Source: a virus (lineage: Duplodnaviria; Heunggongvirae; Uroviricota; Caudoviricetes). From it: a DNA stretch of 15,997 nt. Below, piece by piece: positions 1 to 15,172 of the stretch. The notes below the pieces were generated by a model. The model had not been told where the DNA came from. It worked only from the letters and a program-made list of their open reading frames with translations, and searched no databases. The stretch is from the IMG/VR virus record IMGVR_UViG_2545824717_000014; one strand, given 5' to 3'. How positions within the stretch are numbered: position 1 is the stretch's first letter; every line of letters begins with the position of its first letter. Both the position numbers and the translations under genes were made by a program.

Positions 1-1269
1 ATGCCAAAACTCACAGATATGCAGATCCGCGCATGGATAAAGGCGGGAGACAGATTTGATGGCAAGGCAGACGGCAACGGCCTTTATATTTGCTACCCCA
101 AAAACTACACAGTCCCGTTCTGGCGATTCCGATATAAGCTCGCAGGAAAACAGCGGGCTATGGTTATCGGCTCTTACTCCGAACTGTCACTATCAAAAGC
201 CAGAGAAACAGCAAAAGAGCTGTCAGCCAGAGTTGCTCTTGGCTATGACGTAGCAGCAGAAAAACAGGAACGAAAAGCTGAAGCACTGGCAAAAATGGAG
301 GCTGAGAAAAACGCCATGCGCGTTTCAGATCTGGCCGCCGAATACTTCGAGCGACAGATACTTCCGAGATGGAAACATCCCGATATCCTTCGCCGGAGAA
401 TTGATAAGGATATTAACCCCTGCATTGGGCATATGAAGGTAGAGGACGTTAAGCCACGTCACATTGACGACATGTTAAAAGGTATCGTTGACCGAGGAGC
501 ACCAACGATAGCAACAGATGTATTACGCTGGACACGCCGTATCTTTGACTATGGGATAAAACGCCACGCTCTGGAGATAAACCCTTGTTCAGCGTTTGAA
601 GTATCTGATGCTGGTGGTAAAGAGGTTTCCCGCGACCGTTGGCTAACTCGCGATGAGCTTATCAGGCTATTCGAGGCTATGCGCACCGCAAAAGGATTCA
701 GCCGCCAGAACGAACTGACATTTAAGCTATTGCTGGCACTATGCGTTCGTAAGATGGAGTTATGCGCCGCACGATGGGAAGAGTTTGATTTAGATGGTGC
801 GGTATGGCATTTGCCGGAAGAACGCAGCAAAAACGGAGACCCTATTGATATACCTCTACCTTCCCCAGCCGTTGAATGGTTGAGAGAGCTACACACCTTT
901 TCATGTAATAGCGCATGGGTGCTTCCGGCCAGGAAGATGCAAAACAGAATGATCCCACATATTCAGGAAAGCACTTTACCCGTAGCACTGGCTAAGGTTC
1001 GCGCCGAAATGCCGGATGTGCCTAATTTCACGATTCACGACTTCCGACGCACCGCACGTACTCATTTAGCAGCATTGGGTGTTGATCCTGTCGTGGCGGA
1101 ACGATGCCTCAATCATCGCATTAAGGGCGTAGAGGGGATTTATAACCGTCATCAGTATTTTGATGAGCGTAAAGCAGCACTGGCACAGTGGGCAGATCTG
1201 CTGGTGGCACTGGAAAGCGGGAAAGACTACAACGTAACGCCATTCGATAAAGCCCGGAGGCAAATGTGA
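1..1269 (+). CDS. int: Tyrosine site-specific integrase, P4/CP4-57 (IntA) family, 422 aa
   Basis: Full-length ORF from the first base of the window. N-terminal arm-binding-like region and C-terminal catalytic region with the HDFRRTA (H-x-x-R) box and a Tyr in the GIYNRHQY segment, typical of phage-type tyrosine recombinases. Stop TGA at 1267-1269. Confidence 0.93.
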   Translation: MPKLTDMQIRAWIKAGDRFDGKADGNGLYICYPKNYTVPFWRFRYKLAGKQRAMVIGSYSELSLSKARETAKELSARVALGYDVAAEKQERKAEALAKMEAEKNAMRVSDLAAEYFERQILPRWKHPDILRRRIDKDINPCIGHMKVEDVKPRHIDDMLKGIVDRGAPTIATDVLRWTRRIFDYGIKRHALEINPCSAFEVSDAGGKEVSRDRWLTRDELIRLFEAMRTAKGFSRQNELTFKLLLALCVRKMELCAARWEEFDLDGAVWHLPEERSKNGDPIDIPLPSPAVEWLRELHTFSCNSAWVLPARKMQNRMIPHIQESTLPVALAKVRAEMPDVPNFTIHDFRRTARTHLAALGVDPVVAERCLNHRIKGVEGIYNRHQYFDERKAALAQWADLLVALESGKDYNVTPFDKARRQM

Positions 1270-1916
1270 ACAACATCTTGAGAAAATCGCCAATCGAACG
1301 GCTTTGTTCATCTGTATCGATTACCCCTCATGAAATGGCTGTGGCCTTGGCTGGCCTAAACCCATCTATGCGCATTAGCGATGTGCCTGAGGAAAATTTC
1401 GAATATGTCGATTTTGTCAGAACTCATCTTGCCAGAGCTATCAAGGTGTACAGAGGTGAAAAAACTAGTAAAGATGAGCCTTGCCATGCCCTTGATATTT
1501 TCTTAGCTTCTTACCCATTTATTGACACAAATACACCAGAAATAATTGTTCAGAAAATATCAGAAGCGATTGATGATTTGCGTGGCACCAAGGGCTGGGA
1601 AGAAAAAGCCCGAAACCTTGGAGGACTCCAGTTAGTAAACTACATCAAAGAAACCAACCGCAGCGGACGTGGGCAGCATAGAAAGCAGGATGAGGAAAAC
1701 GGGACAATGAAAATGATGGGGTTGATAGTACATCTGCTGATAAAAAAATCAGGCTCATCTTCCTACATCCAAAATGGGAAACCTAATCGCACAGCTATAT
1801 ACCGTGACATAGAAACCTTAATCAAGGATGAAGGGATATCCCATAAAGGAATAGCAAAAGCCACATTCCTAGAAAAAATCTCACGGGCTTTATTAGCTGT
1901 CCACGATCTCGACTAA
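1266..1916 (+). CDS. Hypothetical protein, 216 aa, GTG start overlapping the integrase stop (alternative ATG at 1335)
   Basis: Long ORF in a different frame immediately after int; GTG at 1266 overlaps the int TGA (ATGTGA). No recognisable motif. Start codon uncertain. Confidence 0.5.
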   Translation: MNNILRKSPIERLCSSVSITPHEMAVALAGLNPSMRISDVPEENFEYVDFVRTHLARAIKVYRGEKTSKDEPCHALDIFLASYPFIDTNTPEIIVQKISEAIDDLRGTKGWEEKARNLGGLQLVNYIKETNRSGRGQHRKQDEENGTMKMMGLIVHLLIKKSGSSSYIQNGKPNRTAIYRDIETLIKDEGISHKGIAKATFLEKISRALLAVHDLD

Positions 1917-2274
1917 TCACTTTTCACGCCCCTCCAAAGCAATGGCGGGGCATTACCTGTTTACCCATCTCCACCAGCATAGATAATTCTATGCCTAGCC
2001 ATTGCTATATCTGTTCGGCTTAGTTCATCTGTAATCACCCCATCTCTAAAAGATACGCCAGCTATCATTAGCCATTTTAAGCCATCATGAGCCATTATAA
2101 ACCGACTCAACCAATTGAATAATAAAAGATAAAAAGAAATGTAAAAACATGATGAATGACGATGAAAGATATAACTCTTTGATAAAACAATGATTTTTTA
2201 AACTGGTAACTAATTGAAAATAAAGAAAATAATTATCCCACCTGCATTTGCAATCTTTCAGTGGATCGGTATTT

Positions 2275-2308
2275 TTTCAATAGATTTATAATTTCTTTCA
2301 ATAGATTC
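2275..2308. promoter_or_regulatory. Direct repeat TTTCAATAGATT x2 (2275-2287 and 2296-2308, 21-bp phasing) in the AT-rich region upstream of the alpA-like operon
   Basis: Two near-identical 12-13-bp copies two helical turns apart inside the 470-bp AT-rich intergenic region 1917-2387; position fits an operator or activator site for the downstream operon. Confidence 0.35.
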
Positions 2309-2387
2309 TAGTCTTAATAGAAATACTGTATGGGCAACCACTAAACTTTAAGTAACTTCATGAGCTATCAGAGAGGTTACTAGAGAC

Positions 2388-2606
2388 ATGACAGTACACA
2401 AGCCAGCATCATCAGCTATCCCAACAACTGGATACATCCGTCGCTTTCGCATGCCGGAATTGCTAGGTGTTTCACTGCCTACTATTGATAGATGGGTTAA
2501 AAATGGCACTCTTCCACGCCCAGTGAAGCTAACAGATAACGTGACTGCGTTTGATGCGGTGGAAATTAATAACTGGCTGGCAGAACGCCGCGGGAAGGTG
2601 GCCTGA
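2388..2606 (+). CDS. alpA: AlpA-family helix-turn-helix regulator/excisionase-like protein, 72 aa
   Basis: Small protein with the AlpA-type pattern (RMPELLGVSLPTIDRWVKNGTLPRPVKL ... EINNWL). It is the first gene after the AT-rich region and is directly followed by a coupled operon, as in P4-like and Gram-negative PICI elements. Confidence 0.8.
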   Translation: MTVHKPASSAIPTTGYIRRFRMPELLGVSLPTIDRWVKNGTLPRPVKLTDNVTAFDAVEINNWLAERRGKVA

Positions 2607-3037
2607 TGGAAAAGAAAAACCGCCCATTACAGGCGGCTAATTCAGATATTCGCGTATCTGATATTACGCCCCTTACAAAATCCCTTCAAGCACCAAAGCG
2701 CACACCGAAAAAGCATCGTGCCCGAGTCTATATGCTGCGTACTGGTATAGAGGGATGGACAGAAAATGACATTCTTCGCTACTGCCGTCTGTCTTCTGGT
2801 CGTAACTATGCAACAGAGTTAGAACGCCAGCTTGGAATCACTCTGGAGCGTATCGACGAAAAGAATCCTGATGGTATCGGAACACACCTTCGCTACCGTT
2901 TCTCCTGCCGTGGTGATGTTCTGAAAGTGATCACTCATGTTAACCATCTTGCGAACATAAATGATCACAACGGACTTTCTCAGCAGGAAATTGCCGACAT
3001 TCTGAAACTCTACCCGGACGCGTTTAACGCCGCCTAA
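2606..3037 (+). CDS. Hypothetical protein, 143 aa
   Basis: ATG at 2606 overlaps the alpA-like stop (TGATG); basic N-terminus; no motif I can assign. Confidence 0.6.
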   Translation: MEKKNRPLQAANSDIRVSDITPLTKSLQAPKRTPKKHRARVYMLRTGIEGWTENDILRYCRLSSGRNYATELERQLGITLERIDEKNPDGIGTHLRYRFSCRGDVLKVITHVNHLANINDHNGLSQQEIADILKLYPDAFNAA

Positions 3038-3049
3038 CGGAGACTAAAA

Positions 3050-3496
3050 ATGAACATCGAAAAAAGCAGATTAATTTCTGAGGCCGCCCCTCATCTGAAC
3101 GCCTCTCTGGGCACAATTAACGGTAATGAATTTGCCGCAATTGTCCCGGTTATTTCTGGTCATATAGGCGGGCGGGAAACCAATATTGTTAGCGCAAAAG
3201 CGTTACACAAAGCGTTGGGCGTGGGAAAAGACTTCTCTACATGGATCACTGATCGCATCTCTGAATATGACTTCACCATTGGGCACGATTACTCAGTCCA
3301 TAAAACAATTTCCCCAAATTTGGGGAAAAGCCCGAATGACGCGGCTTACAGCAAGATTAAGCAGTCTGGCAGACCCGGCAAAGACTATCTGTTAAGTGTC
3401 GGAATGGCGAAAGAACTGGCAATGATCGAACGCAATGATCAGGGTCGCGCTAACGATGCCCGTGCAGAGCTGGTAATTCTTGGTGGTGAAAAATGA
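3050..3496 (+). CDS. Phage antirepressor-like protein (AntA/Rha-type N-terminal domain), 148 aa
   Basis: The segment SAKALHKALGVGKDFSTWITDRISEYDFTIGHDY resembles the N-terminal domain of AntA/Rha/Bro-type phage regulatory proteins. GGAG-like RBS precedes the ATG. Confidence 0.5.
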   Translation: MNIEKSRLISEAAPHLNASLGTINGNEFAAIVPVISGHIGGRETNIVSAKALHKALGVGKDFSTWITDRISEYDFTIGHDYSVHKTISPNLGKSPNDAAYSKIKQSGRPGKDYLLSVGMAKELAMIERNDQGRANDARAELVILGGEK

Positions 3497-3756
3497 ATAT
3501 CAACTTAATTTATCGTCATCCGTGTGAGCTGGAAATTGAATCATTGCTGGGGCGCGAAGAGCCATATCCAGACACATTCACTCCCGCAGATTGCGCGACT
3601 GAACGGCTTACCAGAGCGCGCACAGGTCTGGTTCATGTGATGAATGAGATTATTCCCTCGGTGGGAGGGGAACAGGCGACAGTAATCAATAGCTGGCTAC
3701 AAAAAGTTACCTCCCTGATAGATATCAGTTTAATCGATGTGGAGAGTGCGAAATGA
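3493..3756 (+). CDS. Hypothetical protein, 87 aa
   Basis: ATGA start/stop overlap with the upstream gene (translational coupling); no recognisable motif. Confidence 0.5.
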   Translation: MNINLIYRHPCELEIESLLGREEPYPDTFTPADCATERLTRARTGLVHVMNEIIPSVGGEQATVINSWLQKVTSLIDISLIDVESAK

Positions 3757-3974
3757 CCAACATCCAGCTCATTGAAGCGCAATGTCGCATCGAACAGGTT
3801 CAGACTGTTTTAGGGTTCTGGCTTGAAGGGGCCAGCCCAAGCAACAGAGACAAGTTAATGATTGGCGCGGTTATGTCACTGCTCAATGGCGTACCAGAAG
3901 CTATTCAGGAAGCGGACGAATTGTTGGGCAAATATGAGTTACAGAATCATTCAGGCGAGGCGAAACATGAATAA
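3753..3974 (+). CDS. Hypothetical protein, 73 aa
   Basis: ATGA overlap with the upstream gene; no recognisable motif. Confidence 0.5.
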   Translation: MTNIQLIEAQCRIEQVQTVLGFWLEGASPSNRDKLMIGAVMSLLNGVPEAIQEADELLGKYELQNHSGEAKHE

Positions 3975-4569
3975 TTTCTTAACTTTCCATGCAGAAGCAA
4001 CGCCTGGCGGCGTAAACATCATGTACCGCAGCAACGATGGCATGACAGAACGCGTTGAGGCCGTCTCATATATTGATGCCGTAAATCGTCTGGATGCCGG
4101 GGATTATGACGATAAACCAGATGAAGGTATGTCAATACATCTCGCTATTGCCGATGGCGGCAACCAGGGATATTTCGATTACACATCACAGCATAACGTC
4201 ATTATGTGGAGATGGCTGATCGCAACAGTATTCATGCTGGAAATGAGAGAGGAAAACGGCACCGTCAGCATTATTGATGACAATGGCAATCATTCCGTGG
4301 TTTCTGTTTATTCCAATGGCATCGTCGCCATGCCGCTGTATCCAGTAGCAGAGCGCCTCGCTATGGCAAACAACATTGAGGGCGCAATGATCGAGAAATA
4401 TGGTGTTGATGTCGGAACAAAGAATGCCATCATTTTTTACAGCAACATGTTCGATGTCGAACAGGGAACACTCACTTCGTTTGGGCGAGAAGTGCTTGCC
4501 GATCTTCACAACAGCTTTATTGCCGAACTAAACGAAAACGGCATCCCAGAAGCACCAGTGACGCACTAA
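3967..4569 (+). CDS. Hypothetical protein, 200 aa
   Basis: Start placed at ATG 3967 (MNNFLTF...), which overlaps the previous stop by 8 nt, rather than at the upstream in-frame ATG 3862 that runs through the preceding gene. No motif recognised. Confidence 0.55.
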   Translation: MNNFLTFHAEATPGGVNIMYRSNDGMTERVEAVSYIDAVNRLDAGDYDDKPDEGMSIHLAIADGGNQGYFDYTSQHNVIMWRWLIATVFMLEMREENGTVSIIDDNGNHSVVSVYSNGIVAMPLYPVAERLAMANNIEGAMIEKYGVDVGTKNAIIFYSNMFDVEQGTLTSFGREVLADLHNSFIAELNENGIPEAPVTH

Positions 4570-4581
4570 ACGGGGGCCAGA

Positions 4582-6933
4582 ATGCGAAACATTGATCTTA
4601 TCCGTCAGGTTATCAGTGCGTCTGAAAACAACTGGCCTCATGTGCTGGACTGCCTGAACATAAATGTCCCTGACTCTCCGCGCCGTCATGCTCCCTGCCC
4701 TGCATGTGGGGGCAAAGATCGATTCCGGTTCGATGACAACGGGCGCGGTAGCTTCATCTGTAATCAGTGCGGCGCTGGTGATGGGCTGGATTTAATTAAA
4801 CGCGTAAATAACTGCGACACAACAGAGGCGGCGCTTCTTGCCGCTGATGTTCTGGGTATTGATTACCGGACAACGGAAACACCAGAAGCCACCAGCCAGA
4901 AACGGGAACAACTGGAAACCGAGCGCCAGCGACGCGAACAGGAGCGCCTGAAAAGGGCAGAGAAGGACGAACAACAAAGACGGGATACGTTTTCCCGTCA
5001 GTTTGATGACATGCGCAGAAAGGCTGTAAACGGCAAATCTGATTATCTGGTTGCGAAAGGGGTAGGTGATTTTACATTCCCTGTGTTGCCCGATGGATCT
5101 CTGTTGCTGGCGCTGGTGGATAAATCCGGCGCAGTCACAGCAGCACAGACTATTACCTCACATGGTGAAAAAAGACTCCTGACAGGTTCAGCAAAGCGAG
5201 GGGCATATCACGCCATAAACGCACAGAAACGACCTCACAGCATCATAATTGCTGAGGGGGTGGCTACCGCCCTGTCGTGCCATTTAATTCGCCCTGACGC
5301 AATGACAGTGGCAGCAATCGACGCTGGCAACCTGTTGCCAGTAGCGGAAGTCATGCGCAGAACATATCCACAGGCACAAATCATCATTGCCGCAGATAAC
5401 GATCACCAGCAAGGAAACTCCGAAAGTGGAGGGATCAACACGGGGAAAGATGCCGCAGAGAGGGCCGCTATTTCCGTAGCTGGCTGGGTGTCTCTGCCAC
5501 CGACTGACTATAAAGCCGACTGGAACGACTATCACCAACAACACGGGCTGGCGGCAGCCACAGCAGCATTTAAAGATTCGATGTACCAGCCACGGGGGAA
5601 AGGGGCGCAGGTGAAAAATCACAAACAGTCAGTCGGGGCGCTGAATGAGATCAGTTCTGGCGAGGTGTTAAGCGATGATGAAATTGCTGTCCTCGAAGAA
5701 ATCAACCGGACGTTTACGCATGTCACCATCGGCGGGAAACACAAGGTGGTGTCGCTAAAGCCTTCTCAAACCGGCGGTGTATCGCACGTTTTCGAGGATT
5801 TATCACAATTTCAGCATTATTTTCATCATAAACCGAGAGTCGCCAGAAAGCTGGCGGGATCGGCGTGGCTGTCATGGAGTGGGAAGAACTACAAGCCAGG
5901 AGGCGTAGGATTTTATCCAGTACCAGACAAATGCCCTGACGATGTTTTTAATCTGTATGAGGGGCTGGCACTGGAACCAATTGAAGGAGATTGCACGGTA
6001 TACCTTAATCACCTGTTGCAGGTTGTCTGTGCCGGTAATGAAGAGGCATACCAATATCTTATCCAGTGGATGGCGCACATTATCCAAAAGCCTGATGAAA
6101 AACCGTCCGTGGCAATCGTGATGAAATCTGTCCCGGGCACAGGGAAAGGCACAACGGTTAAACCGCTGCTGCAAATACTGGGGCAGTACGCCGCCCACAT
6201 TAACGGGGCGGGACATATTTCAGGGCGCTTCAATTCAATACTTGCTAACAAGCTACTGGTATTTGCTGACGAAGTGACGATCCACAAGCCGTCTGAAGCT
6301 GACAGACTTAAAGCGATTATTAGCGAACCGACGTTTAACCTTGAGCGCAAGGGAATTGATGCTGAACCAATGCCGAATTTTGCCCGGTTGATATTTGCCA
6401 GTAACAGCACACAGGTATTACAGGCAGGGATAAGAGAGCGCCGCTATCTCGTGCTTGAGCCATCTCCTGAAAAAGCACAGAGCCGGGAGTATTTTGATCG
6501 GCTGTACAGTTGGCTTAATGATGGCGGTGCCGCAAAGTTGCTTTGGCATCTTAAAGGGGTGGATCTCTCAGGTTTTGACCCTCAACGAGCGCCACAGACC
6601 GATGCCTTACGTGAAGAAATCTTGCTGGGGCTGTCTGGCGTTGAATTGTTTCTTTATGGCGAGCTAATCAATGAACCTCCGTTTAATGGCGAAGTCCGTT
6701 TGTTTGCAAAGGATATGGTTAGTCGATTTGTAGCGTGGTCGCTTGAGCGTGGGGAAAAGCTTAAAGAACCAGCTGCCAGATCACTACTGGGTAAATCACT
6801 TGCACAAATGGGGCTGGTGAAGCATGGAAGACCAGACCGAGGGAATGGCGTGTTCTACGAACTACCAGAGGTCGGAGTTCTACAGGCTGCGTTTGCCCGT
6901 CTGATCGGTATGGGGGGTTATGATGTTTTTTAA
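4582..6933 (+). CDS. Primase-helicase, P4 alpha-like (zinc-ribbon + TOPRIM primase + P-loop NTPase), 783 aa
   Basis: N-terminal CPAC...CNQC zinc ribbon; TOPRIM motifs (IIIAEGVATA with the conserved Glu, IIIAADNDH DxD box); C-terminal P-loop-like VPGTGKGT and Walker B LLVFADEV. Size and architecture match satellite/plasmid primase-helicases (P4 alpha is of similar length). Confidence 0.9.
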   Translation: MRNIDLIRQVISASENNWPHVLDCLNINVPDSPRRHAPCPACGGKDRFRFDDNGRGSFICNQCGAGDGLDLIKRVNNCDTTEAALLAADVLGIDYRTTETPEATSQKREQLETERQRREQERLKRAEKDEQQRRDTFSRQFDDMRRKAVNGKSDYLVAKGVGDFTFPVLPDGSLLLALVDKSGAVTAAQTITSHGEKRLLTGSAKRGAYHAINAQKRPHSIIIAEGVATALSCHLIRPDAMTVAAIDAGNLLPVAEVMRRTYPQAQIIIAADNDHQQGNSESGGINTGKDAAERAAISVAGWVSLPPTDYKADWNDYHQQHGLAAATAAFKDSMYQPRGKGAQVKNHKQSVGALNEISSGEVLSDDEIAVLEEINRTFTHVTIGGKHKVVSLKPSQTGGVSHVFEDLSQFQHYFHHKPRVARKLAGSAWLSWSGKNYKPGGVGFYPVPDKCPDDVFNLYEGLALEPIEGDCTVYLNHLLQVVCAGNEEAYQYLIQWMAHIIQKPDEKPSVAIVMKSVPGTGKGTTVKPLLQILGQYAAHINGAGHISGRFNSILANKLLVFADEVTIHKPSEADRLKAIISEPTFNLERKGIDAEPMPNFARLIFASNSTQVLQAGIRERRYLVLEPSPEKAQSREYFDRLYSWLNDGGAAKLLWHLKGVDLSGFDPQRAPQTDALREEILLGLSGVELFLYGELINEPPFNGEVRLFAKDMVSRFVAWSLERGEKLKEPAARSLLGKSLAQMGLVKHGRPDRGNGVFYELPEVGVLQAAFARLIGMGGYDVF

Positions 6934-6963
6934 TATAGTCTTTTTACAAGAAGATCGTTTTTA

Positions 6964-7066
6964 CCTGTACCACCTATACCACTTTGCTAATTCAGCATTA
7001 AAAACAATGCGTTATAGTGGTACAGGTCAATATCTTACCTATACCAGACCTGTACCACCTATACCA
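6964..7066. repeat. Iteron cluster 1: CCTGTACCACCTATACCA direct copies at 6964-6981 and 7049-7066 plus an inverted partial copy (TGGTACAGG, 7018-7026)
   Basis: Read directly from the sequence immediately downstream of the primase-helicase gene; candidate replication origin. Confidence 0.7.
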
Positions 7067-7109
7067 TTAACAAACGCATTTCTTCTGGCTGGCTGAGAGG
7101 GAACAACCA

Positions 7110-7340
7110 ATGATGAGCACACCATTTTACAAAGTGCGCCAGTTAGCTTCTTCCTCTGGCTGGCAGCTACGGTTTGAGGGGCGTTCAGACTGGCTACCCA
7201 TTGCGGCATGGGCGAATGTTGAAATGTGTATTGACGGCGATACCGTTGAAATCATTATTCCCTGCGTGGCAAGTCGGGACGGCTGTATAGAGCCAACAGA
7301 TATGGCAGCAGAAATCAGAGAGGTAAAACATGAACAATAA
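7110..7340 (+). CDS. Hypothetical protein, 76 aa
   Basis: ORF with a GAGG-like RBS, located between the two iteron clusters. Confidence 0.45.
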   Translation: MMSTPFYKVRQLASSSGWQLRFEGRSDWLPIAAWANVEMCIDGDTVEIIIPCVASRDGCIEPTDMAAEIREVKHEQ

Positions 7341-8067
7341 CTATTGCATACTGCAGGGAATGACCAGAACGGAGCGCGAAGAATTAAAAAGTTTCGCTAC
7401 ACAGTGCGGGAATGCTGGCGACATCCAAAGTCTGGAACGCACTTTAATTATGATTGCGCACTGGATGCGCCAGGGGCAAAGAGTTTCATTTACTGAATAT
7501 GCCAGCCAGTGGACAGAGGCACAGCGCGAACGGAGCGACGGTAATCACTCAACACCCGAAATGGCGAAGCAATGGCCTTTCAGTGGTAAACGCTGTATCA
7601 GTCCCGGTGGTTCAGATTATTACCCTGCTGGTGTGGGAGATGAGCCATGTTGTGACGAGACTGAAATCCGCCACGCAGTGACAGTAATTACCGCTGAATA
7701 CCCACAATTTAACCTTGACGGACTGGCGCTCCACAACCGGAATGCGGACTGGGAAAACCCGCTTGATAACCCGTCATTTATCGTATCGGCGAAAAGCTGC
7801 CTGAGATGGATCAGAGACAACGGGATGAGTAATGCCCAGATTGAGAGCTTCCCGCAGGATAACCCCACATCTGACACGTTGAAGCATGAAGTGGAGCGAT
7901 ATAACCAGATAAACCACCAGCACAGTGATCACCCGCACTATATCCCCAACGGAGCATTTATTGCGGCGATGGTGGCAAGCGGCTACAAGGTTAAGCCAGC
8001 GGGAAGAATGAACGCATTTTTCAATATTTCAAAAAAGGGATTATGTGCTGCTATGGGTAAAAATTAA
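7330..8067 (+). CDS. Hypothetical protein, 245 aa
   Basis: GAGGT RBS 7-8 nt upstream of the ATG; 11-nt overlap with the upstream gene; no motif recognised. Confidence 0.6.
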   Translation: MNNNYCILQGMTRTEREELKSFATQCGNAGDIQSLERTLIMIAHWMRQGQRVSFTEYASQWTEAQRERSDGNHSTPEMAKQWPFSGKRCISPGGSDYYPAGVGDEPCCDETEIRHAVTVITAEYPQFNLDGLALHNRNADWENPLDNPSFIVSAKSCLRWIRDNGMSNAQIESFPQDNPTSDTLKHEVERYNQINHQHSDHPHYIPNGAFIAAMVASGYKVKPAGRMNAFFNISKKGLCAAMGKN

Positions 8068-8073
8068 ATAAAT

Positions 8074-8176
8074 GGTACAGGTCTGTACAGGTGGGGAGAG
8101 GTCATTTTTACCCACCTGTACCACCTGCAGGCCGCGCCACACAAGGGTTTGTGACATGGTGGTACAGGTGGTACAG
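8074..8176. repeat. Iteron cluster 2: GGTACAGG/CCTGTACC copies at 8074-8081, 8085-8092, 8115-8122 (inverted), 8161-8168 and 8170-8176
   Basis: Same core octamer as cluster 1, in both orientations, ~1.1 kb downstream of cluster 1; resembles the paired ori/crr arrangement of P4-type replicons. Confidence 0.7.
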
Positions 8177-8670
8177 CAAAAACAGCGATTTTCTTTATAA
8201 GGTATGTTTTGCTCATCTGGCAGACGGAGGTATTCGCTGCGGTTTGGCACATAGCCCAGAACAGCAAAGAGTTTTACGAGACTTTTGTAAAATCCAGTGT
8301 ACAAGGGCGTGACGTTTTTGAAGGTGAGCACTACGAAATTTTCGTAGTTCAAAAAATAGCCTCTGAGATGTTGTTATGCCTGTTCAGCAAACCATCCGCA
8401 TAGCTGATCGCGAATCAAATTACCAATGGAGCCAGAAGCAAGGGCAGAACTGGAAAGCGCCTGCCGTGAAGAGTAATGCGACTCCATAAATATAGTTTTT
8501 AGAGTCCATAAAAAAACTGTCAAAACCTGACATACAGAACGATGCCACCAGCTACTGAACGGTGGCATTTTTTTGTGCTATTTGTTTCATATTTTGCAAT
8601 CACAATGATGAATGTTGCGTTTTATGAAACTATAATGACTGTTGTTTTATACAGTTCTAAGGGGGGCGTT

Positions 8671-8844
8671 ATGGCTATTTCAGTAAAGCCAGTATTGATA
8701 AGTGAGAAGCAAATGGAAGCGATAAAGAAAATTCAGGAGGAGCAGCGTAAAAAATCAGAGGTAGGAGTTGCGCCAACGATCCACGAAATTGCTCGGGGAT
8801 TAATGGATAAGGCGCTGGCTTACACTTTAACTGGACGTGGGTAA
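8671..8844 (+). CDS. Small protein, 57 aa, possible ribbon-helix-helix DNA-binding protein; first gene of the cargo operon
   Basis: Start chosen at ATG 8671, preceded by the G-rich RBS AAGGGGGG; a -10-like TATAAT lies ~40 bp upstream. The pattern ISVKPVLISEKQMEAIKKI ... IHEIARGLMDKAL is compatible with an RHH fold (weak, by eye). Stop is directly adjacent to the next gene. Confidence 0.45.
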   Translation: MAISVKPVLISEKQMEAIKKIQEEQRKKSEVGVAPTIHEIARGLMDKALAYTLTGRG

Positions 8845-8848
8845 ATTT

Positions 8849-10192
8849 ATGGCTACGTGGCAACAGGGTATTAATTCTGGTGGTTTTCTGGCTGGCATCG
8901 GTGCGCAAAATGAGAATGCGCCAAAGGCAAGCGACATTAACGCAACGCTTGGTCTGATCCGCGAAAACAATGAACTGGCTCCCTCAGGTGCAAATAACGT
9001 TGCTCTGACAGGTCTTCGTGGTCTGGCTGGAGTTGCTGACATTTATAAGCAGCAGCAACAGCAGGAACGTAAAGCGGCATTCCAGAAAGGTTATGCAGAT
9101 GCTTATGCGTCCGGTGACAGGGAGCAGATGCGTAATCTTATTACAGCATTCCCAGAAGAGTTTGAGGAAGTCCGTAAAGGGATGAGTTATGTCGATGATG
9201 CTCAAAGGGATGATTATGGCAATCTGGCGCTCAAAGCACAGGTAGCCTCATCGCTTGGTCAGGGCGCATTTGGCAGGTTCATGATGGATAATGAGCAGGA
9301 GATGCGTCGTTTAGGTATCCCTCCAGAAACTATTGCTGAAATGCAGGTTAATGACCCGCAGGGCTTCCAGCATTTCGCAGGTAATCTGGCGCTGTTTTCT
9401 CTCGGTCATGAGAAGTATTTCGATATCAAAGATCAAATGGAAGGTCGTCGACTTGAGCAAGGGCGACTGGATGAAAGTATGCGTCAGGCTGACATGGAGA
9501 ACGCGAGAGGATGGGCAAATATCCAGAACGCTCAACTAGACAGGGCTCAGCGAGCACAAATTCACTCAGATGAGATGGGATTGAAGCTAATGGAGCTGGG
9601 GCAAAAAGGTAAGCCGTCAGCAGACTTAATTAAGGGATTAAATTCTGACATTACCAATTTTGGCAAAAATTATAACTCTGTCAGAGCGGCGGCAAACTCT
9701 CTGCAAGCCCTTAGCAAGGTAAATACTGGCGCTGCCCAACTTGGGATTATCTTCAACTACATGAAATCTCTTGACCCGCAGTCAGTCGTTCGTGAAGGCG
9801 AACAGGTTCAGGTAATGCGGTCTGATGGCATATGGGGACAAATCAAAGGATACATAGACCAGCTTAATGCTGGAAACGGCCTGTCGCAGGAGGCAAAGGA
9901 TAACATTGTTAACGCCGCAAAAATCAACGCCAATGCTATGGGGCAGCAGTTTAACCAGCAGGTTGACGAGTATCTCGATACATATGGAGAAACTATTCCT
10001 CAGGGGCTAAGAAAAAGCCTTGAAAGAAGGAAAGCGAAGCTATTTGACGATGTTTCCGGGCAGCCTACATCACAGGCTGGCACTGGACAGGCAAAAGCGG
10101 CAACCGGAGGAATATCAGAAGGCGCAACGGCAACCAACCCTAAAACTGGTCAGAAAATCATTTACAGGAACGGAAAATGGCAGCAAATGTAA
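8849..10192 (+). CDS. Hypothetical protein, 447 aa, Q/A/N/G-rich and predicted largely helical; no recognisable catalytic motif (alternative GTG start at 8837)
   Basis: Long ORF whose 3' end overlaps the next gene by 16 nt. Contains a short poly-Gln run (KQQQQQERK) and many amphipathic-looking segments. Confidence 0.7.
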   Translation: MATWQQGINSGGFLAGIGAQNENAPKASDINATLGLIRENNELAPSGANNVALTGLRGLAGVADIYKQQQQQERKAAFQKGYADAYASGDREQMRNLITAFPEEFEEVRKGMSYVDDAQRDDYGNLALKAQVASSLGQGAFGRFMMDNEQEMRRLGIPPETIAEMQVNDPQGFQHFAGNLALFSLGHEKYFDIKDQMEGRRLEQGRLDESMRQADMENARGWANIQNAQLDRAQRAQIHSDEMGLKLMELGQKGKPSADLIKGLNSDITNFGKNYNSVRAAANSLQALSKVNTGAAQLGIIFNYMKSLDPQSVVREGEQVQVMRSDGIWGQIKGYIDQLNAGNGLSQEAKDNIVNAAKINANAMGQQFNQQVDEYLDTYGETIPQGLRKSLERRKAKLFDDVSGQPTSQAGTGQAKAATGGISEGATATNPKTGQKIIYRNGKWQQM

Positions 10193-12294
10193 TCTTACCG
10201 GAAGGTTTTGTGCTCGATGAACAACCTGATAACTCACAGTTTCCTGATAGTTCACAGCTTCCTGATGGTTTTGTGCTTGATGCCCAACCAGAACAGCAGC
10301 AATCACCTTTGGTTTCACCAGAGGAAAATTCCAGACAGGAAAATGTTGTTAATAATGCTAACGGTTTCGACCGTTTTATGTATGGCGTTCTCAGTGGATT
10401 GATGGATGTTGGTAAAGGTGTTGGCCTGTTTCAGGATATGACACCAGAAGAGCAAGCCGCAATTCAGTCTCTACAGCAGAAGTTAGCGGCAAAACCATCA
10501 ACCGCACAAGATGTTGGTGAGTTCGTTGGACAAGCAGCGCCATTTGTTAGTGGTGGTGGGATTATTTCTCAGGTTCCCAAAGGGGCGGCAAGACTGGCTG
10601 CCGCCGCAGGGCTTGGTGCTGGAGAAGGGGCTATTGTAGCCAATGGAACAAATAGCGATGTTGCTTCCGGCGCTGCTATTGGCGCTGTGGCTGGCCCTGT
10701 AGCCGAACTTGCTGGCCCTGCAATTAATAAAATAGCTGGGAAATTAACCAAGAAGAATGTTTCTTCGATTCCAGATATTGAGGGGATTACTCCTGCCGAA
10801 GAGAAAATTCGTAAGTTATCTGCACAAGGCAACCCAAATCTTGCCTCTTCGCTTGAAGGGCTAGATCTAAAACCTCAGAAAGAAATTGTTGAGGCTGCAA
10901 ATAGGCTTCATGTTGATTCAGTTCTTCCTTCTCATTTATCAGGAAATGAGCAATACCAAGCTGTAGAGCAAGCCCTAAAGTCACGGACAGGATCAGCGTT
11001 AAAAGCTCAAGAAGATAAAGCAATAAGCGAATTAGCCTCTAGTGCTGGCAAGATAATCGATGATGTTGCTGGTGCGCCAGATGCGTTAGCTATGAGCGAA
11101 AAATATATTTATCAGATAAATAGTAGAATGGAAGCACTAAAAAACCGTAGTGATCAGTTATATAAACGTGTTGATTCCGCTCTATCACCAAGAACAAAAG
11201 TCGAAGCAAATAACACAAGCACTATGCTGGAAAAAATCGCTGATGATTTAGGAGGGTGGGATAATCTTGACCCAATAGAAAAGCGAGTTTTTACAGCAAT
11301 AAACCCCGGCCCAGATAGCATCCTAACGTATGCAAATTTAAACAGGCAAAGGCGTTTAGTTGGTGATGCCCTAAATAAAAAGCAGGGGCCATACAAAGAT
11401 GCTGATAAAGAAGCGCTATCAAGACTATATGGAGCTTTAGCTGAAGACCAAAAATCTGTCTTATCCAATACTGGATACTTGCGAGATTTCGAAGTCGCAC
11501 AACGCCTTGTAGCTATGAGAAAAAACTTAGAAAGGCAAATGGTAAATCTTCGCGGGAAAACACTTAATGGGGATATAGCGTATAAAGTAACGAATTCTCT
11601 TCAATCTATGGCAAAAGGTGATGCGAGAGGGTTTCGTGAGATTATGCAAAATACTCCATCAAGAACATTGCGAAGGGAGCTAGTAGGAACAGCATTAAGA
11701 GATATGCTTTCCTCTGGGAAGCGTGGGGCCGACTTTAATCCATCTGGCTTCGCAGATTGGTGGCAAAACTTGCAACACAGTGGACAGCTAAAGACTTTGG
11801 CTGAACATTTGCCAAAAGAAACAATGAGCGGACTATATGATGTATACAAAGTTGCCAGAGCAATAAAAAATGCTAAAGCGCATGAAATATCTACTGGTAA
11901 GCTGAATGAGTTTGTAAACAGATTTAATCGGGTAACAGCTCCATACGAACTAGCAGCAAAACACATTCAAAAAATAGGCACGATGGTAGGCGCTCATTTT
12001 GGATCGCTTGGAGCCATTGCTGGGGCTGATATTGGAGCAAGATTGGCGAGTAAAGCTCGATTAGCTGGTGGAGCAGGGGCGGCTGATGCTGCGGATAAAT
12101 TAATTGCCTCGCCAGCCTTCCAGAGCGCAGTAAAAAATCTACACGGAAAAGCGCCTGGGCACATTGTTGATTCACGTATCAGGCGCTCCCCTCAATGGAA
12201 GAGTTTTTTTAACTCTCTTCCTGAACAGGAAAAACGGACCATCGCCAGACTGGGCATCATTACTTGGCTATCTAATGATCCAGATAATGACTAG
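10177..12294 (+). CDS. Hypothetical protein, 705 aa, with N-terminal tandem repeat (PEGFVLDEQP / PDGFVLDAQP) and Gly/Ala-rich hydrophobic segments near both ends
   Basis: ATG with AGGA RBS ~9 nt upstream; start overlaps the stop of the 447-aa gene. G/A-rich stretches (AAAAGLGAGEGAIVANG...AIGAVAGPVAELAGPAI; IGTMVGAHFGSLGAIAGADIGARL...AGGAGAA). No P-loop, nuclease or protease motif identified by eye. Confidence 0.75.
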   Translation: MAANVILPEGFVLDEQPDNSQFPDSSQLPDGFVLDAQPEQQQSPLVSPEENSRQENVVNNANGFDRFMYGVLSGLMDVGKGVGLFQDMTPEEQAAIQSLQQKLAAKPSTAQDVGEFVGQAAPFVSGGGIISQVPKGAARLAAAAGLGAGEGAIVANGTNSDVASGAAIGAVAGPVAELAGPAINKIAGKLTKKNVSSIPDIEGITPAEEKIRKLSAQGNPNLASSLEGLDLKPQKEIVEAANRLHVDSVLPSHLSGNEQYQAVEQALKSRTGSALKAQEDKAISELASSAGKIIDDVAGAPDALAMSEKYIYQINSRMEALKNRSDQLYKRVDSALSPRTKVEANNTSTMLEKIADDLGGWDNLDPIEKRVFTAINPGPDSILTYANLNRQRRLVGDALNKKQGPYKDADKEALSRLYGALAEDQKSVLSNTGYLRDFEVAQRLVAMRKNLERQMVNLRGKTLNGDIAYKVTNSLQSMAKGDARGFREIMQNTPSRTLRRELVGTALRDMLSSGKRGADFNPSGFADWWQNLQHSGQLKTLAEHLPKETMSGLYDVYKVARAIKNAKAHEISTGKLNEFVNRFNRVTAPYELAAKHIQKIGTMVGAHFGSLGAIAGADIGARLASKARLAGGAGAADAADKLIASPAFQSAVKNLHGKAPGHIVDSRIRRSPQWKSFFNSLPEQEKRTIARLGIITWLSNDPDND

Positions 12295-12313
12295 TGAATG
12301 GCCACGGATGGCC

Positions 12314-12739
12314 TCAATCTTTATTCTTTGAAATAGAGTCATTGATCTTTTCGAAACACCAATGAAATCCACAAAAGAGAGCTACACCAATATAACAATA
12401 CAAAACTATCAACCACCTTTCAGTGTCCGAAGGGTAAAAAACATCAATTACATAAGCAACACCAATTGGTATTAATGCTAGTAATAACATCGACACAGGA
12501 CGTACAAACTTCTGAACTATATCAATTTTATAGAACCACAAGGCGGTATGTTTAATGATATAAGTAAAGATGGCTGCGCCAATAATGGCAAAAAACACCA
12601 TCGATAAAGTCGGGTATAACTTTGCGACAATTAAACCCAACAAAATAATTATAACTGCCTGCCCCCTCACACCAACCCTCCCTTTAGCTTTGTTTAGAAT
12701 GGCAATCATCATATATCCAAGACATGGCATTTGGTACAT
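12314..12739 (-). CDS. Small integral membrane protein, up to 141 aa, about 4 predicted TM helices; convergent on the 705-aa gene
   Basis: Four hydrophobic ~20-residue segments (AVIIILLGLIVAKLY, SMVFFAIIGAAIFTYII, SMLLLALIPIGVAYVIDVF, WLIVLYCYIGVALFCGF). Its stop lies 19 bp from the stop of the 705-aa gene on the other strand. Start codon uncertain (several in-frame ATGs, no strong RBS). Confidence 0.6.
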   Translation of the reverse strand: MYQMPCLGYMMIAILNKAKGRVGVRGQAVIIILLGLIVAKLYPTLSMVFFAIIGAAIFTYIIKHTALWFYKIDIVQKFVRPVSMLLLALIPIGVAYVIDVFYPSDTERWLIVLYCYIGVALFCGFHWCFEKINDSISKNKD

Positions 12740-12857
12740 AGCTTGGGTCGGGATTTCAAATCCGCTCCCCGTTGATGGGGCCGTTACAGTACGCGCATAT
12801 CCGCTTTATGTGAAACAGGAAGATTTTTCTGATATCACTGCCACAGCAAAACACCAA

Positions 12858-12936
12858 TTTCGTGACCAGTACGCGCGCGAGGTGTATCAGTTGCAAAATT
12901 TTTTGCAGCTGTGTCCGACCAGTACGCACGCGATGG
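12858..12936. repeat. Two copies of a ~25-bp motif with an alternating CG core (TTTCGTGACCAGTACGCGCGCGAGG at 12858-12882; degenerate copy GTGTCCGACCAGTACGCACGCGATGG at 12911-12936)
   Basis: Read directly from the sequence; located in a ~450-bp stretch without convincing ORFs. Confidence 0.6.
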
Positions 12937-13142
12937 CGGGGAGCACCATAAAACTGTTCTCTACATAAGACAGAGTGGTGGTGATGTGTTGATTATCGGC
13001 GTATATGCGCACAGGACGCGCTATGACGATGTTTTATGCGGGTACACCAATCACATGTATCTGGTGTGATAAATCGCGTTACATGACCTCTCATGTTGTG
13101 CTGGTGGTTATCACGACGTTCTGAATCTGGCCTTTGCCTGAT

Positions 13143-13169
13143 ATTTTGCGACAAGTACGCGCGCGTAGC
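13143..13169. repeat. Third copy of the motif (ATTTTGCGACAAGTACGCGCGCGTAGC), containing the perfect palindrome TACGCGCGCGTA
   Basis: Read directly from the sequence. Confidence 0.6.
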
Positions 13170-13193
13170 ATCGACAGCATACACATTGGATAT

Positions 13194-13394
13194 TCATTTT
13201 GTGACCAATGCGATAAGTAGCGGGATAAGAATTGATAAAATCAACAGGACGATGATCCACTTCTGATTCTCGTCCATCTTATCTGCTAGGCGACGCTCCA
13301 TTCCGTGCATATCACCGCGAATGGCAATCATCTCATTGCGAACATCCGAGAAGTGGTTGGCTTGATGTTCAATGTGTGGCGTTCTGCCTTTCAT
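13194..13394 (-). CDS. Small tail-anchored membrane protein, 66 aa (hydrophilic N-terminus, single C-terminal TM helix)
   Basis: GAGG RBS upstream of the ATG on the minus strand; C-terminal WIIVLLILSILIPLLIALV hydrophobic helix. Architecture recalls XhlA-type or holin-like small membrane proteins (by eye only). Confidence 0.55.
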   Translation of the reverse strand: MKGRTPHIEHQANHFSDVRNEMIAIRGDMHGMERRLADKMDENQKWIIVLLILSILIPLLIALVTK

Positions 13395-13473
13395 TCCTGA
13401 TCCTCACCTATCGTCACCACCTGCTGGTGTATAAAGGTATTGGCCCAAGCAGCTTTCTAATGGGCACTCATGT

Positions 13474-13929
13474 TTATACGCTGACCTTACAATCAATCAC
13501 CGCTTTTAACTTTTCAGCATTGCTTCCCTGACGCTTCCACGCGCTGTAAATATCTTTATCCCACGCTTTACCAGCTTTTGTTTGATAGCCTGCTTCATTG
13601 ATCCGTTCAGCTATCACACGCCCATTATCAAATCCCTGTCGGATGGTATCGGCAATGATCTTTATAACTGCCGTTTCGTTATATGGCTTTGGTGGGATGT
13701 TCGGCTTTCCGGCAATAAGCGACGCAGCGGCTTTTTCCATGCGCTCCACCAGCCCAAGCATTCGTGAATCAATAGACTTTTCCGGCTGTCCCAGCTTCAT
13801 GCGAATCGCATCAACAAGCCAGGAGGTTTTATCCCCTCCAGAAGCGAGAACAGACCGATTAAACTCATCCTGCAATTCAGATGGGATGCGGAACGCGACC
13901 AGATTAGATTTGCTCATTGCAAAGACCAT
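13474..13929 (-). CDS. Putative ribbon-helix-helix DNA-binding regulator, 151 aa (alternative start at 13917); no RBS, possibly leaderless
   Basis: N-terminal LVAFRIPSELQDEFNRSV...TSWLVDAIRMKL fits a beta-strand/helix/helix RHH (Arc/CopG-like) pattern. Divergent from the PerC-like gene across a palindrome/iteron-rich region. Confidence 0.55.
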   Translation of the reverse strand: MVFAMSKSNLVAFRIPSELQDEFNRSVLASGGDKTSWLVDAIRMKLGQPEKSIDSRMLGLVERMEKAAASLIAGKPNIPPKPYNETAVIKIIADTIRQGFDNGRVIAERINEAGYQTKAGKAWDKDIYSAWKRQGSNAEKLKAVIDCKVSV

Positions 13930-13946
13930 ATCAGTGAGTAATATCC

Positions 13947-13978
13947 ATACAGTATACCACTGTATAACACTGTTATAC
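13947..13978. promoter_or_regulatory. Overlapping palindromes ATACAGT-N5-ACTGTAT (13947-13965) and GTATAACA-C-TGTTATAC (13962-13978); operator-like
   Basis: Perfect inverted repeats read directly from the sequence, located just upstream (minus-strand sense) of the RHH-like gene start. Confidence 0.5.
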
Positions 13979-14030
13979 GCTCAAATATCAACCAGAAAAT
14001 AACGGACCAATCACAAAGCTATCGCTGTGT

Positions 14031-14152
14031 TGTTGGTTCAGAGCTGGACTGTGTTGGTTCAAAATGAGTTGATGTTGGTTCAATATTTCTGAAAAAACAC
14101 AATAAAAACAACGATCTTTACAAATTGAACCAACTGAACCAACTGAACCAAC
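14031..14152. repeat. Iteron array: TGTTGGTTCA x3 direct at 21-bp phasing (14031-14040, 14052-14061, 14073-14082), AT-rich spacer, then TGAACCAAC x3 in tight tandem on the opposite orientation (14126-14152)
   Basis: Read directly from the sequence; lies directly upstream of a -10-like TATATAAT (14168-14175) and the PerC-like gene. Confidence 0.75.
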
Positions 14153-14188
14153 ACCTTTTTGCTTATCTATATAATCTGAGAGGCAGAA

Positions 14189-14476
14189 ATGATAAGGGAC
14201 AGGAAAGCTGAAGAGCTGGAGTCAAAAGGGCTATACCGGAGAGCTGCCGCACGATGGGCAGAAGTCATGATGCTGGCAGATGGCGATAAAGAACGTGAAC
14301 ATGCAGCAAACAGACGCTCTGAATGTATCCGTAAGGCGGCACGCCAACCAGCAACTACAGACAGATTCGGAGATTTAAGACAGGCAGTTAAGCGGACTCA
14401 TTCGGCTCTTGGTATGGATGAGGAAGCGAGAGGGTACTTCAGGCGTTATCGCGATAAAGATTGCCAGAGACAGTAA
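14189..14476 (+). CDS. PerC-family transcriptional activator-like protein, 95 aa
   Basis: N-terminal KAEELESKGLYRRAAARWAEVM matches the conserved PerC/Pch-type signature as I recall it; GAGAGG RBS upstream. Confidence 0.65.
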   Translation: MIRDRKAEELESKGLYRRAAARWAEVMMLADGDKEREHAANRRSECIRKAARQPATTDRFGDLRQAVKRTHSALGMDEEARGYFRRYRDKDCQRQ

Positions 14477-14750
14477 TGCTCTCTCTGTTTTGGCAAATTA
14501 CCCCTCACTTTGAAGGGATCGGAGCTATAAAAATGGTGTTATCCGGCTTCCTCAAATTTAGGTTTTCGAAAGAATCAATGGGTTAGGTCATCGTGCAAAT
14601 TTGCACTCTGCCAGCCAACGCAATTTCTCGTTGGCGGAAATATCAGGTATTTACTGAACGAACGGTCTACCAGTCTGTTCAGTTACCAGTTGCACATGGC
14701 TGTTTCATGTGAGAACGGAGGTTTTTTCGGACATCGCTATTGGGTACAGC

Positions 14751-15129: not shown

Positions 15130-15172
15130 ACAGATTTACTTTCTTTGCAATCGATATCACATGGAGTGGGCA

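Follow-up and report, generated by a model that had tools for sequence, protein, structure and literature searches.

A deletion allele without the RNA immunity module in the alpA-to-primase array of a probable EcCIMP1-like satellite island of Escherichia coli

The stretch of DNA analyzed here (IMG/VR record IMGVR_UViG_2545824717_000014; the whole stretch of 15,997 nt is called the window below) was read together with a list of its open reading frames (ORFs) and their translations. Between positions 2388 and 6933, it carries seven genes that run from an alpA-like regulator to a primase-helicase:

2388-2606, plus strand: alpA, 72 aa, the first gene in the array
2606-3037, plus strand: o143, 143 aa, 1-nt TGATG overlap with alpA
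3050-3496, plus strand: o148, 148 aa, 12-nt gap after o143
3493-3756, plus strand: o87, 87 aa, ATGA overlap (-4) with o148
3753-3974, plus strand: o73, 73 aa, ATGA overlap (-4) with o87
3967-4569, plus strand: o200, 200 aa, 8-nt ATGAATAA overlap (-8) with o73
4582-6933, plus strand: primase-helicase, 783 aa, the last gene in the array, 12-nt gap after o200

This array is most probably the AlpA-headed regulatory and replication operon of a phage-inducible chromosomal island (PICI) of the EcCIMP1 type, which is located between yicC and dinD in Escherichia coli. The copy in the window belongs to a known kind of satellite and is damaged; it is not a new system, and both the family and its architecture have already been published (EcCIMP1, PMC11773190; the zone layout including immunity RNAs, PMC10111431). 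What is new here is an allele from which a deletion has taken the RNA immunity module, a chimeric “Ant-like” gene, the probable Cnr-like nature of o200 and the finding that Ash annotations lie over the isrK and C4 RNA genes.

The ORFs and their junctions (-1, +12, -4, -4, -8 and +12 nt) agree with the initial annotation, which had described a seven-gene array joined at almost every junction by an ATGA or TGATG overlap or a short gap. All seven start codons have a purine-rich Shine-Dalgarno-like stretch just upstream; in the case of o200, the coupled ATG is at 3967, and the longest ORF begins at TTG 3862. No terminator-like sites were predicted on the plus strand within 2388-6933, and in the promoter and terminator scan the matches were no commoner than in shuffled controls, so that no promoter could be placed. 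The view that alpA to primase forms one operon holds insofar as this is a coupled, transcription-unit-like satellite array, but it is not a native seven-gene operon and derives from at least ten genes.

The full-length operon is seen in a related locus, L002 (NZ_CP024232), and consists of alpA, o143, an AntA/AntB gene (277 aa), a DUF4222 gene (60 aa), an “ash family” ORF (355 aa), a 64-aa gene (o64), o87, o73, o200 and the primase gene. When the window is compared with L002 by blastn, the segments 1-3452 and 3451-15997 are split by 1,808 bp (L002 4953-6760), and every close E. coli match aligns to the window in at least two pieces. Comparison with L002 and with a second locus, L001 (NZ_CP068155), together with the junction sequences, locates the breakpoint:

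3451-3454: deletion junction, break at 3452/3453; the dinucleotide TA at 3451-3452 is a 2-nt microhomology

Lost in this way are the C-terminal half of AntA, DUF4222, the Ash/Eta-like ORF together with isrK and C4, the Icd/Kil-like gene and most of the 64-aa gene. One of the small genes in the array, o148, is accordingly not native but is the in-frame product of this 1.8-kb deletion, in which AntA residues 1-134 are joined to the last 14 codons of o64. Residues 1-134 of o148 share 97% identity with the 277-aa AntA of EcCIMP1; over residues 135-148, identity to the end of the EcCIMP1 64-aa ORF is 100%. The AntA domain is intact (Pfam AntA, E 4e-22, residues 47-129), but the full two-domain AntA/AntB protein (PF08346 plus a C-terminal domain, ~277 aa) is not present, AntA residues 135-277 being replaced by 14 others. 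The ATGA overlap between o148 and o87 was inherited from the end of the 64-aa gene via the fusion. The five small genes of 73-200 aa, one of them Ant-like, that had been described at first are thus there as ORFs, with the correction that the Ant-like one is a chimera. For annotation in general, the lesson is that small ORFs beside deletions can be chimeras.

The junction was found in one piece in none of the 5,426 complete E. coli genomes. The exact chimeric o148 protein, however, is encoded on at least 24 contigs of public assemblies, which demonstrates that the deletion allele is genuine and not an assembly error. Most of these contigs carry the same neighboring genes (one shown, 23 similar), which fits clonal spread, and a possible, if minority, explanation of the locus is that the window copy is a decaying, non-mobilizable remnant that is inherited vertically in one E. 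coli lineage. The absence of the junction from the complete genomes points the same way, as does the fact that the deletion takes out elements found in all ten other loci scanned. Independent deletions have also hit the same zone elsewhere: L001 lacks L002 6057-6760, a third locus (L003) lacks the AntA-to-Ash segment, and the ash ORF of EcCIMP1 is truncated to a pseudogene. What speaks against decay is the state of the rest of the island, in which all remaining ORFs are intact, including int, alpA, the primase gene and the late-zone genes, the iterons are preserved, and the o148 fusion is in frame with its ATGA coupling kept. Furthermore, EcCIMP1 is mobilizable despite its ash pseudogene, and AlpA alone triggers excision and replication in Gram-negative PICIs (PMC6092414).

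The deletions in the window (1,808 bp) and in L001 (704 bp) have a common right end, TA/ACGATGCC within GTTAAC (window 3451-3452; L001 12553/12554; L002 6760/6761), and different left ends, which could mean that a second deletion was nested in the first or that breakage has a hot spot here. The L001 deletion has brought a TGGTGTATAA -10-like element directly upstream of o87.

Apart from o148, the small genes belong to a widespread arrangement. The same gene order is present in 12 loci from at least eight enterobacterial genera (Escherichia, Kluyvera, Enterobacter, Scandinavium, Shimwellia, Lonsdalea, Klebsiella and Atlantibacter), namely alpA, o143, AntA, (DUF4222), Ash/icd, (o64), o87, (o73), o200, (o113), primase. 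There are two alpA alleles, each with o143 directly after it. The ratios of nonsynonymous to synonymous divergence (dN/dS) are 0.09-0.17 for o143, 0.11-0.24 for o200, 0.2-0.43 for o73 and 0.14-0.24 for the N-terminal half of the primase. Given the recurrence of the gene order in 12 loci and these low dN/dS values, the small genes are genuine genes and not chance ORFs. The dN to distant loci increases from o143 (~0.10) through the primase N-terminal half (~0.18) and o200 (~0.31) to o87 (0.38-0.41) and o73 (0.52-0.55), that is, o143 is the most constrained of these genes, and o87 and o73 are the fastest evolving. The right half of the array (o87, o73 and o200) matches ~640 of the 5,426 complete E. 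coli genomes, and the cassette is spread across Enterobacterales. The initial annotation had named a lack of conservation in related islands as an observation that would speak against its reading; the small genes are kept in such islands, across all these loci.

The closest characterized relative, EcCIMP1, is a PICI of E. coli MP1 whose helper is the P22-like phage vB_EcoP_Kapi1 (Pick, Stadel and Raivio 2025, PMC11773190). It has been shown to excise and to be transduced, at low frequency, with Kapi1 only, and to need alpA and int for this; its alpA promoter is helper-induced and autoactivated, and the island strengthens superinfection immunity to Kapi1 and is without a known defense system (PMC11773190). 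The same AlpA logic has been demonstrated for EcCICFT073, and in Gram-negative PICIs AlpA alone suffices for excision and replication (PMC6092414). The antirepressor, Ash and the primase have been named as the most conserved genes (PMC11773190).

Our comparison with EcCIMP1, made with the MP1 locus (L004), shows a shared cassette that extends from 2596, ten bases before the alpA stop, to 5603 in the middle of the primase gene, with DNA identity of 98.6% over window 2596-3452, 93.4% over 3451-4567 and 87.5% over 4582-5603. At the protein level, identity is 99% for o143, 97% for AntA 1-134, 92% for o87, 100% for o73, 89% for o200 and 85% for the N-terminal half of the primase. Of the conserved EcCIMP1-like cassette, the remaining genes are 89-100% identical, and the AntA C-terminal half, DUF4222, Ash with its RNAs, icd and o64 are deleted. 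In both islands, alpA lies immediately 5' of o143 and is coupled to it by a 1-nt TGATG overlap; farther downstream are DNA-transfer genes of the P22/Kapi1 type, and a PerC-family gene is found near the far end. The flanks of the cassette differ: the integrases share 29% amino acid identity, the site is tRNA-Thr at proA in EcCIMP1 and yicC-dinD in the window, the AlpA proteins are 34% identical, and the primase C-terminal module is DUF927 in EcCIMP1 as opposed to DUF5906 here. Besides the parts lost by the deletion (the C-terminal half of AntA, DUF4222, the ash region and its isrK and C4 RNAs, the icd-like gene and o64), the window lacks o113 and o123 of EcCIMP1.

The segment lost from the window contains, in relatives, two RNA genes. 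In L002, Rfam models detect isrK at 5933-6010 and the C4 antisense RNA at 6073-6160, both within the “ash” ORF, and the pair is present in ten of the ten other loci scanned (L002, EcCIMP1 and eight more). In P4 (L017), isrK matches at 8615-8692 and C4 at 8420-8507. In the window, neither RNA was found at gathering score, nor at E <= 1 over 1200-8900. The isrK and C4 models have been reported to pick up relatives of the P4 seqA target and of the CI immunity RNA; such immunity RNAs are located in the “Bro zone” of Gram-negative PICIs, and in P4 the CI RNA prematurely terminates transcription upstream of the replication genes (PMC10111431). By extension from P4, we infer that premature termination of this type would also operate in the full-length relatives. 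Between isrK and C4, L002 has the sequence TGGTGTATAAT, a consensus extended -10 element whose last base is 6056; C4 is followed by an Icd-like ORF (ATG 6215) preceded by a Shine-Dalgarno sequence, a 71-aa ORF, o64 and o87, with ATGA or ATGAATAA overlaps. The ash ORF matches the P4 eta/cI region (E 1.6e-15), and the icd-like ORF matches the Kil part of P4 “ORF137” (E 7e-9).

At the sequence level, the layout in the full-length relatives parallels that of the P4 left operon (vis - eta/kil with seqA and CI RNA - eps - orf151 - cnr - alpha), given the isrK/C4 pair and the homologies of alpA with vis, ash with eta, icd with kil and the primase with alpha. Both have an AlpA/Vis protein, RNAs in the Ash/Eta ORF, a Kil/Icd-like product, small genes, Cnr or a Cnr-like protein and the primase gene 12-14 nt further on. 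Homologues can be recognized for vis, the eta region, kil, cnr and the N-terminal half of alpha, and 8-nt overlaps between small genes occur in both. Unlike P4, the relatives have o143, AntA and DUF4222 between alpA and the Ash region, and the window has no epsilon, orf151, sid, psu or delta and has lost the entire immunity module.

The parallel in gene order (vis/alpA, eta/ash with isrK and C4, kil/icd, small genes, cnr-like gene, alpha-like primase), along with a P4-type integrase (25% identical to P4 Int, E 9e-20), might be taken to mean that the element is a strict P4-like satellite whose array corresponds to the left (PLE/PLL) operon of P4. We regard this as highly improbable and rejected it because psu, sid, delta and epsilon are absent: none of them had a Pfam or PHROG match in the window proteins scanned, and what the window has in common with P4-like satellites in this respect is limited to int, alpA and an alpha-like primase. 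Moreover, the late zone contains P22-type ejection genes, not P2-directed capsid-size genes, and the closest characterized relative is mobilized by a P22-like podovirus (PMC11773190). The immI region of phage P1 (c4 antisense RNA - icd - ant) is a further point of comparison, as the relatives also join a C4-family RNA, an Icd-like ORF next to it and AntA/AntB in one operon. They differ from immI in that AntA is upstream of C4 and icd and the downstream cargo is a replication module; in the window, neither C4 nor icd survives.

The location of the RNAs affects the annotation of ash itself. Pfam Phage_ASH spans ash residues 124-232, which correspond to L002 5921-6248 and lie over isrK and C4; the same overlap is seen in P4 (L017) at 8329-8521. 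Part of the “ash family” signal may be conserved RNA sequence read as protein, and wherever these islands are annotated with an “Ash family protein”, two RNA genes lie beneath the call. Ash has been equated with P4 epsilon in one paper (PMC8628076); epsilon, however, has a separate Pfam family (PF25738) and sits elsewhere in P4 than Ash.

The statement in the initial annotation that none of the small genes can be assigned proved too pessimistic, as o200 has a domain similar to P4 Cnr (DUF5375), which would be an ordinary replication-accessory function. The protein matches phrog_1515 (E 2e-47), which is annotated as of unknown function, and more weakly, in the same register, phrog_5991, the P4 Cnr family (E 0.027). 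An exhaustive hidden Markov model (HMM) search with o200 gave 144 representatives at E <= 1e-3, 42 of which make up alignment A4. Comparison of A4 with the Cnr alignment A3 by hhalign yields a probability of 93.7% (E 1.8e-7), with o200 73-186 aligned to Cnr 6-101 and a 22-residue insertion that falls on a low-confidence hairpin in the AlphaFold2 (AF2) model. A low-diversity alignment of o200 (A2) reached a probability of only 5% against Cnr. An intermediate sequence, P0502, matches both the o200 profile and Pfam DUF5375. Like P4 cnr, o200 is located 12-14 nt upstream of the primase gene. Compared with P4 Cnr, the protein has an extra N-terminal domain of ~72 aa (~residues 1-72, before the Cnr-like domain) and the 22-aa insertion; o200 is predicted to contain a homologous Cnr domain inside a larger, distinct family (phrog_1515). 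P4 Cnr is known to bind the primase/initiator. In P4, cnr governs plasmid copy number (PMC8628076). The A4/A3 profile match, the P0502 intermediate and the position upstream of the primase gene suggest that o200 is a Cnr-like regulator of the primase involved in copy-number control, which is the first functional lead for one of these “hypothetical” proteins.

The profile and structure searches that the initial annotation had proposed thus yielded an assignment for o200, a non-significant fold for o143 and no assignable match for o87 and o73. The o143 gene directly follows alpA in 12 of 12 loci and has 611 homologous clusters; among the 120 listed, identity is 73-99%, and those whose source is named come from Enterobacterales. 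The AF2 model of o143 (predicted local distance difference test, pLDDT, 71.7) has a basic disordered N-terminus, an H-H-H-E-E core and two C-terminal helices. Pfam HTH_91 matches with E 0.018, under the cut-off, and the top Foldseek matches are winged-helix proteins, none of them significant; o143 may, on the strength of this model, be a winged-helix DNA-binding protein. With the single sequence, o143 weakly resembled the head-binding domain of the P22 tailspike (E 0.45 in the PDB search and 0.094 with Pfam Head_binding), which would have made it a mimic of that domain; this was dismissed as chance since it disappeared with the family profile. RefSeq names a close homologue of o143 (L003 3214-3645, NZ_CM173935) “PM1773 family protein”; the NCBIfam scan of o143 gave no match.

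The two fastest evolving proteins, o87 and o73, are 26-54% and 41-46% identical, respectively, to their counterparts in other genera. No Pfam, PHROG, NCBIfam or PADLOC match was found for o87; o73, a small helical protein, matches phrog_20558 (E 2.9e-9, annotated as of unknown function) and has no Pfam domain. NCBIfam and PADLOC gave no match for any of the small genes, o73 included, and sequence searches of the PDB returned nothing usable for o87, o73 or o200; a match of o87 to the designed protein 7ong was discarded because it contained no significant stretch.

The initial annotation had noted that small genes in such a position often mediate helper sensing, derepression or interference. That the small genes here, o87 and o73 in particular, are factors of this kind and positional analogues of P4 epsilon appears rather doubtful to us. 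Both genes sit where P4 has eps and orf151, with the CI/kil region on one side and cnr-alpha on the other, and evolve much faster than their neighbors, as expected for proteins that track variable phage partners; EcCIMP1, for its part, makes superinfection immunity against Kapi1 stronger and has no known defense system (PMC11773190). Neither protein, however, shows similarity to P4 epsilon or orf151 in hhalign comparisons or contains the Pfam Derepression family of epsilon (PF25738), and the lack of PADLOC, Pfam and NCBIfam matches offers no support. Fast evolution is equally typical of small non-essential accessory proteins, and o200, as a replication accessory, and o143, as a possible DNA-binding protein, are better explained otherwise. 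For o87 and o73, and for these two genes only, a role in helper interaction would fit where they lie and how fast they evolve, but neither feature demonstrates it.

At the head of the array, the product of alpA is assigned by sequence similarity to the AlpA/Vis family of helix-turn-helix regulators (Pfam Phage_AlpA, 26.4 bits, cut-off 21; P4 Vis, E 8e-6). Its upstream region contains the following elements:

1917-2387, plus strand: intergenic region 5' of alpA, AT-rich (GC 0.34)
2254-2306: three 13-nt direct repeats TCTTTCAATAGAT, spaced 19-21 nt, 80-130 nt 5' of alpA
2060-2099: two AGC(C/T)ATCAT(T/G)AGCCAT repeats, farther 5' of alpA

By analogy with the reporter data on EcCIMP1 and EcCICFT073 (PMC11773190, PMC6092414), the region 1917-2387 presumably holds the helper-inducible alpA promoter. 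The TCTTTCAATAGAT repeats are conserved in L012 and present in a degenerate form in L014, two loci that share the same int allele, and both repeat sets (2254-2306 and 2060-2099) are candidate operator or activator sites. In four other loci, the Rfam int-alpA RNA (RF02996) lies between int and alpA (L005 2471-2538, L006 2630-2698, L011 2335-2403 and L016 3550-3615); this RNA was not detected in the window, where the o216 gene stands after int.

At the other end of the array, the primase-helicase has a Zn ribbon, a Toprim domain and a DUF5906 P-loop module (Pfam). Its N-terminal half, in addition to the identity with the EcCIMP1 primase, is 33% identical to P4 alpha (E 2e-40); DUF5906 forms the C-terminal module. 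Two iteron clusters are found past the gene:

6959-7066, plus strand: iteron cluster 1, ACCTGTACCACCTATACCA and related 9-10-mers, immediately past the primase stop
8068-8176, plus strand: iteron cluster 2, units as in cluster 1, some direct but most as the reverse complement GGTGGTACAGGT

The two clusters (ACCTGTACCA / ACCTATACCA iterons, 9-10 nt) flank o76 and o245. Their positions match those of the P4 ori and crr repeats and of the PICI rep-ori (PMC6092414), and they are likely to constitute a split replication origin like ori and crr of P4.

The window is 99.7-100% identical to E. coli chromosomes in which the island, ~15 kb long, sits between yicC and dinD; the yicC-dinD copies are the same as the window except for 1.1-1.8 kb of extra sequence. 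The integrase gene is at one end and a PerC-family gene is near the other, and ARAGORN finds no tRNA genes in the window. The genes outside the array that bear on the identity of the island are:

1-1269, plus strand: tyrosine integrase (Pfam Arm-DNA-bind_3, Phage_int_M and Phage_integrase), at the left end of the island, downstream of yicC
1266-1916, plus strand: o216, a 216-aa ORF, 4-nt overlap with int; phrog_30524, E 3e-34, annotated as of unknown function
8837-12294 and 8542-8844: late zone, P22 gp20-type and gp16-position genes, among them a gp20-like gene (Pfam Inj_translocase, E 4e-72) and, after it, a 705-aa gene
14189-14476: PerC-family regulator gene, E 1.3e-32

Identical RefSeq copies beside yicC also annotate the product of 1-1269 as an integrase, and o216 accompanies the same int allele in L012 and L014. 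Several hallmarks of PICIs are thus present: an int gene followed by an AlpA-family gene that is transcribed toward the replication genes, both with Pfam matches above cut-offs; an own primase with adjacent iteron clusters of presumed origin function; and a size in the ~10-20 kb range at a specific chromosomal site, without a full set of phage structural or lysis genes, the late zone having only P22-type ejection-protein genes. The four zones recognized in Gram-negative PICIs (Fillol-Salom et al., 2018, PMC6092414; Mageeney et al., 2023, PMC10111431), namely integration, Bro, replication and late, correspond in the window to int and alpA, to AntA and related genes (joined by immunity RNAs in relatives), to the primase with the ori repeats and to captured helper late genes. 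In contrast to this general layout, the window has no recognizable terS, rpp or capsid-redirecting genes, and its Bro zone is down to o143 and the AntA stump, with no immunity RNA left.

The late zone shows 90% DNA identity to the DNA-transfer genes of Kapi1, which indicates that the helper is probably a Kapi1/P22-like podovirus. The retention of ejection proteins by the satellite might bear on the superinfection immunity reported for EcCIMP1. The PerC-family product is 53% identical to the PerC-like protein of EcCIMP1, which represses LEE (the locus of enterocyte effacement) in Citrobacter rodentium (PMC11773190).

For the EcCIMP1-like PICI that we favor, we propose the following mechanism, the relevant steps of which have been shown experimentally for relatives only. 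A lytic helper, probably a P22/Kapi1-like podovirus, would turn on the alpA promoter in 1917-2387, and AlpA would boost its own expression. Transcription and coupled translation would then pass through o143, the AntA remnant, o87, o73 and o200 into the primase-helicase gene, the product of which would replicate the excised island from the iterons just downstream, with o200 as a Cnr-like partner that modulates the primase to control copy number. The role of o143 would perhaps be that of a winged-helix DNA-binding protein that moves with the cassette, not with the alpA allele or the origin module. In the full-length relatives, the operon is broken by a P4-type module made up of isrK, the extended -10 promoter, C4, the icd/kil-like gene and further small genes. 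With this module gone, the replication genes in the window stand directly behind alpA, o143 and the AntA stump, with no RNA checkpoint or internal promoter.

Several observations weigh against this reading. No sigma-70-like promoter was predicted directly 5' of alpA, and the induction, expression and transfer of this allele are extrapolated from relatives. Given that AlpA and the integrase share only 34% and 29% amino acid identity, respectively, with those of EcCIMP1, helper specificity and regulation may differ from that system. It may also be that the deletion simply put the island out of action; the mechanism would then apply to its ancestor, not to the window copy. As for the individual proteins, hmmscan of o200 and 26 relatives gave no DUF5375 (PF17345) match, the link between o200 and Cnr being a profile-profile comparison, and the winged-helix call for o143 comes from a moderate model (pLDDT 72) with non-significant fold matches.

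A bolder version is that the deletion is a natural “immunity-less” rewiring, which, by loss of the isrK/C4/icd checkpoint and its internal promoter, puts the replication genes (o87, o73, the Cnr-like o200 and the primase) under the direct and sole control of the helper-induced AlpA promoter, and, separately, that o87 and o73 form a new class of helper-interaction proteins with the role of epsilon for P22-like helpers; we consider this unlikely. The rewiring, if true, would alter the timing and strength of satellite replication. More generally, the comparison ties EcCIMP1-type PICIs to the logic of P4, with an AlpA/Vis head, seqA- and CI-like RNAs in the Ash/Eta ORF and a Cnr-like gene beside the primase gene, and the deletion alleles (the window and L001) are natural mutants for probing the RNA immunity module in a PICI. 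Current views of satellites are not overturned by these results, the practical value of which lies in annotation.

The host of the window matches genomes of enterotoxigenic E. coli (ETEC) O6:H16. The dinD region (14952-15997) has a 97.6% match in two “Campylobacter phage” GenBank records (MG065686 and MG065691, 174 kb each), probably owing to contamination or mis-assembly of those records. Similarly, L012 (CACSKA010000004.1), which is labeled Chryseobacterium sp., contains this island of enterobacteria, in which int, o216 and alpA are of the same alleles as here (82-90% amino acid identity), and is probably a mislabeled or contaminated assembly. In NZ_CP013190, an otherwise near-identical copy of the island has a group II intron (ltrA) inserted.

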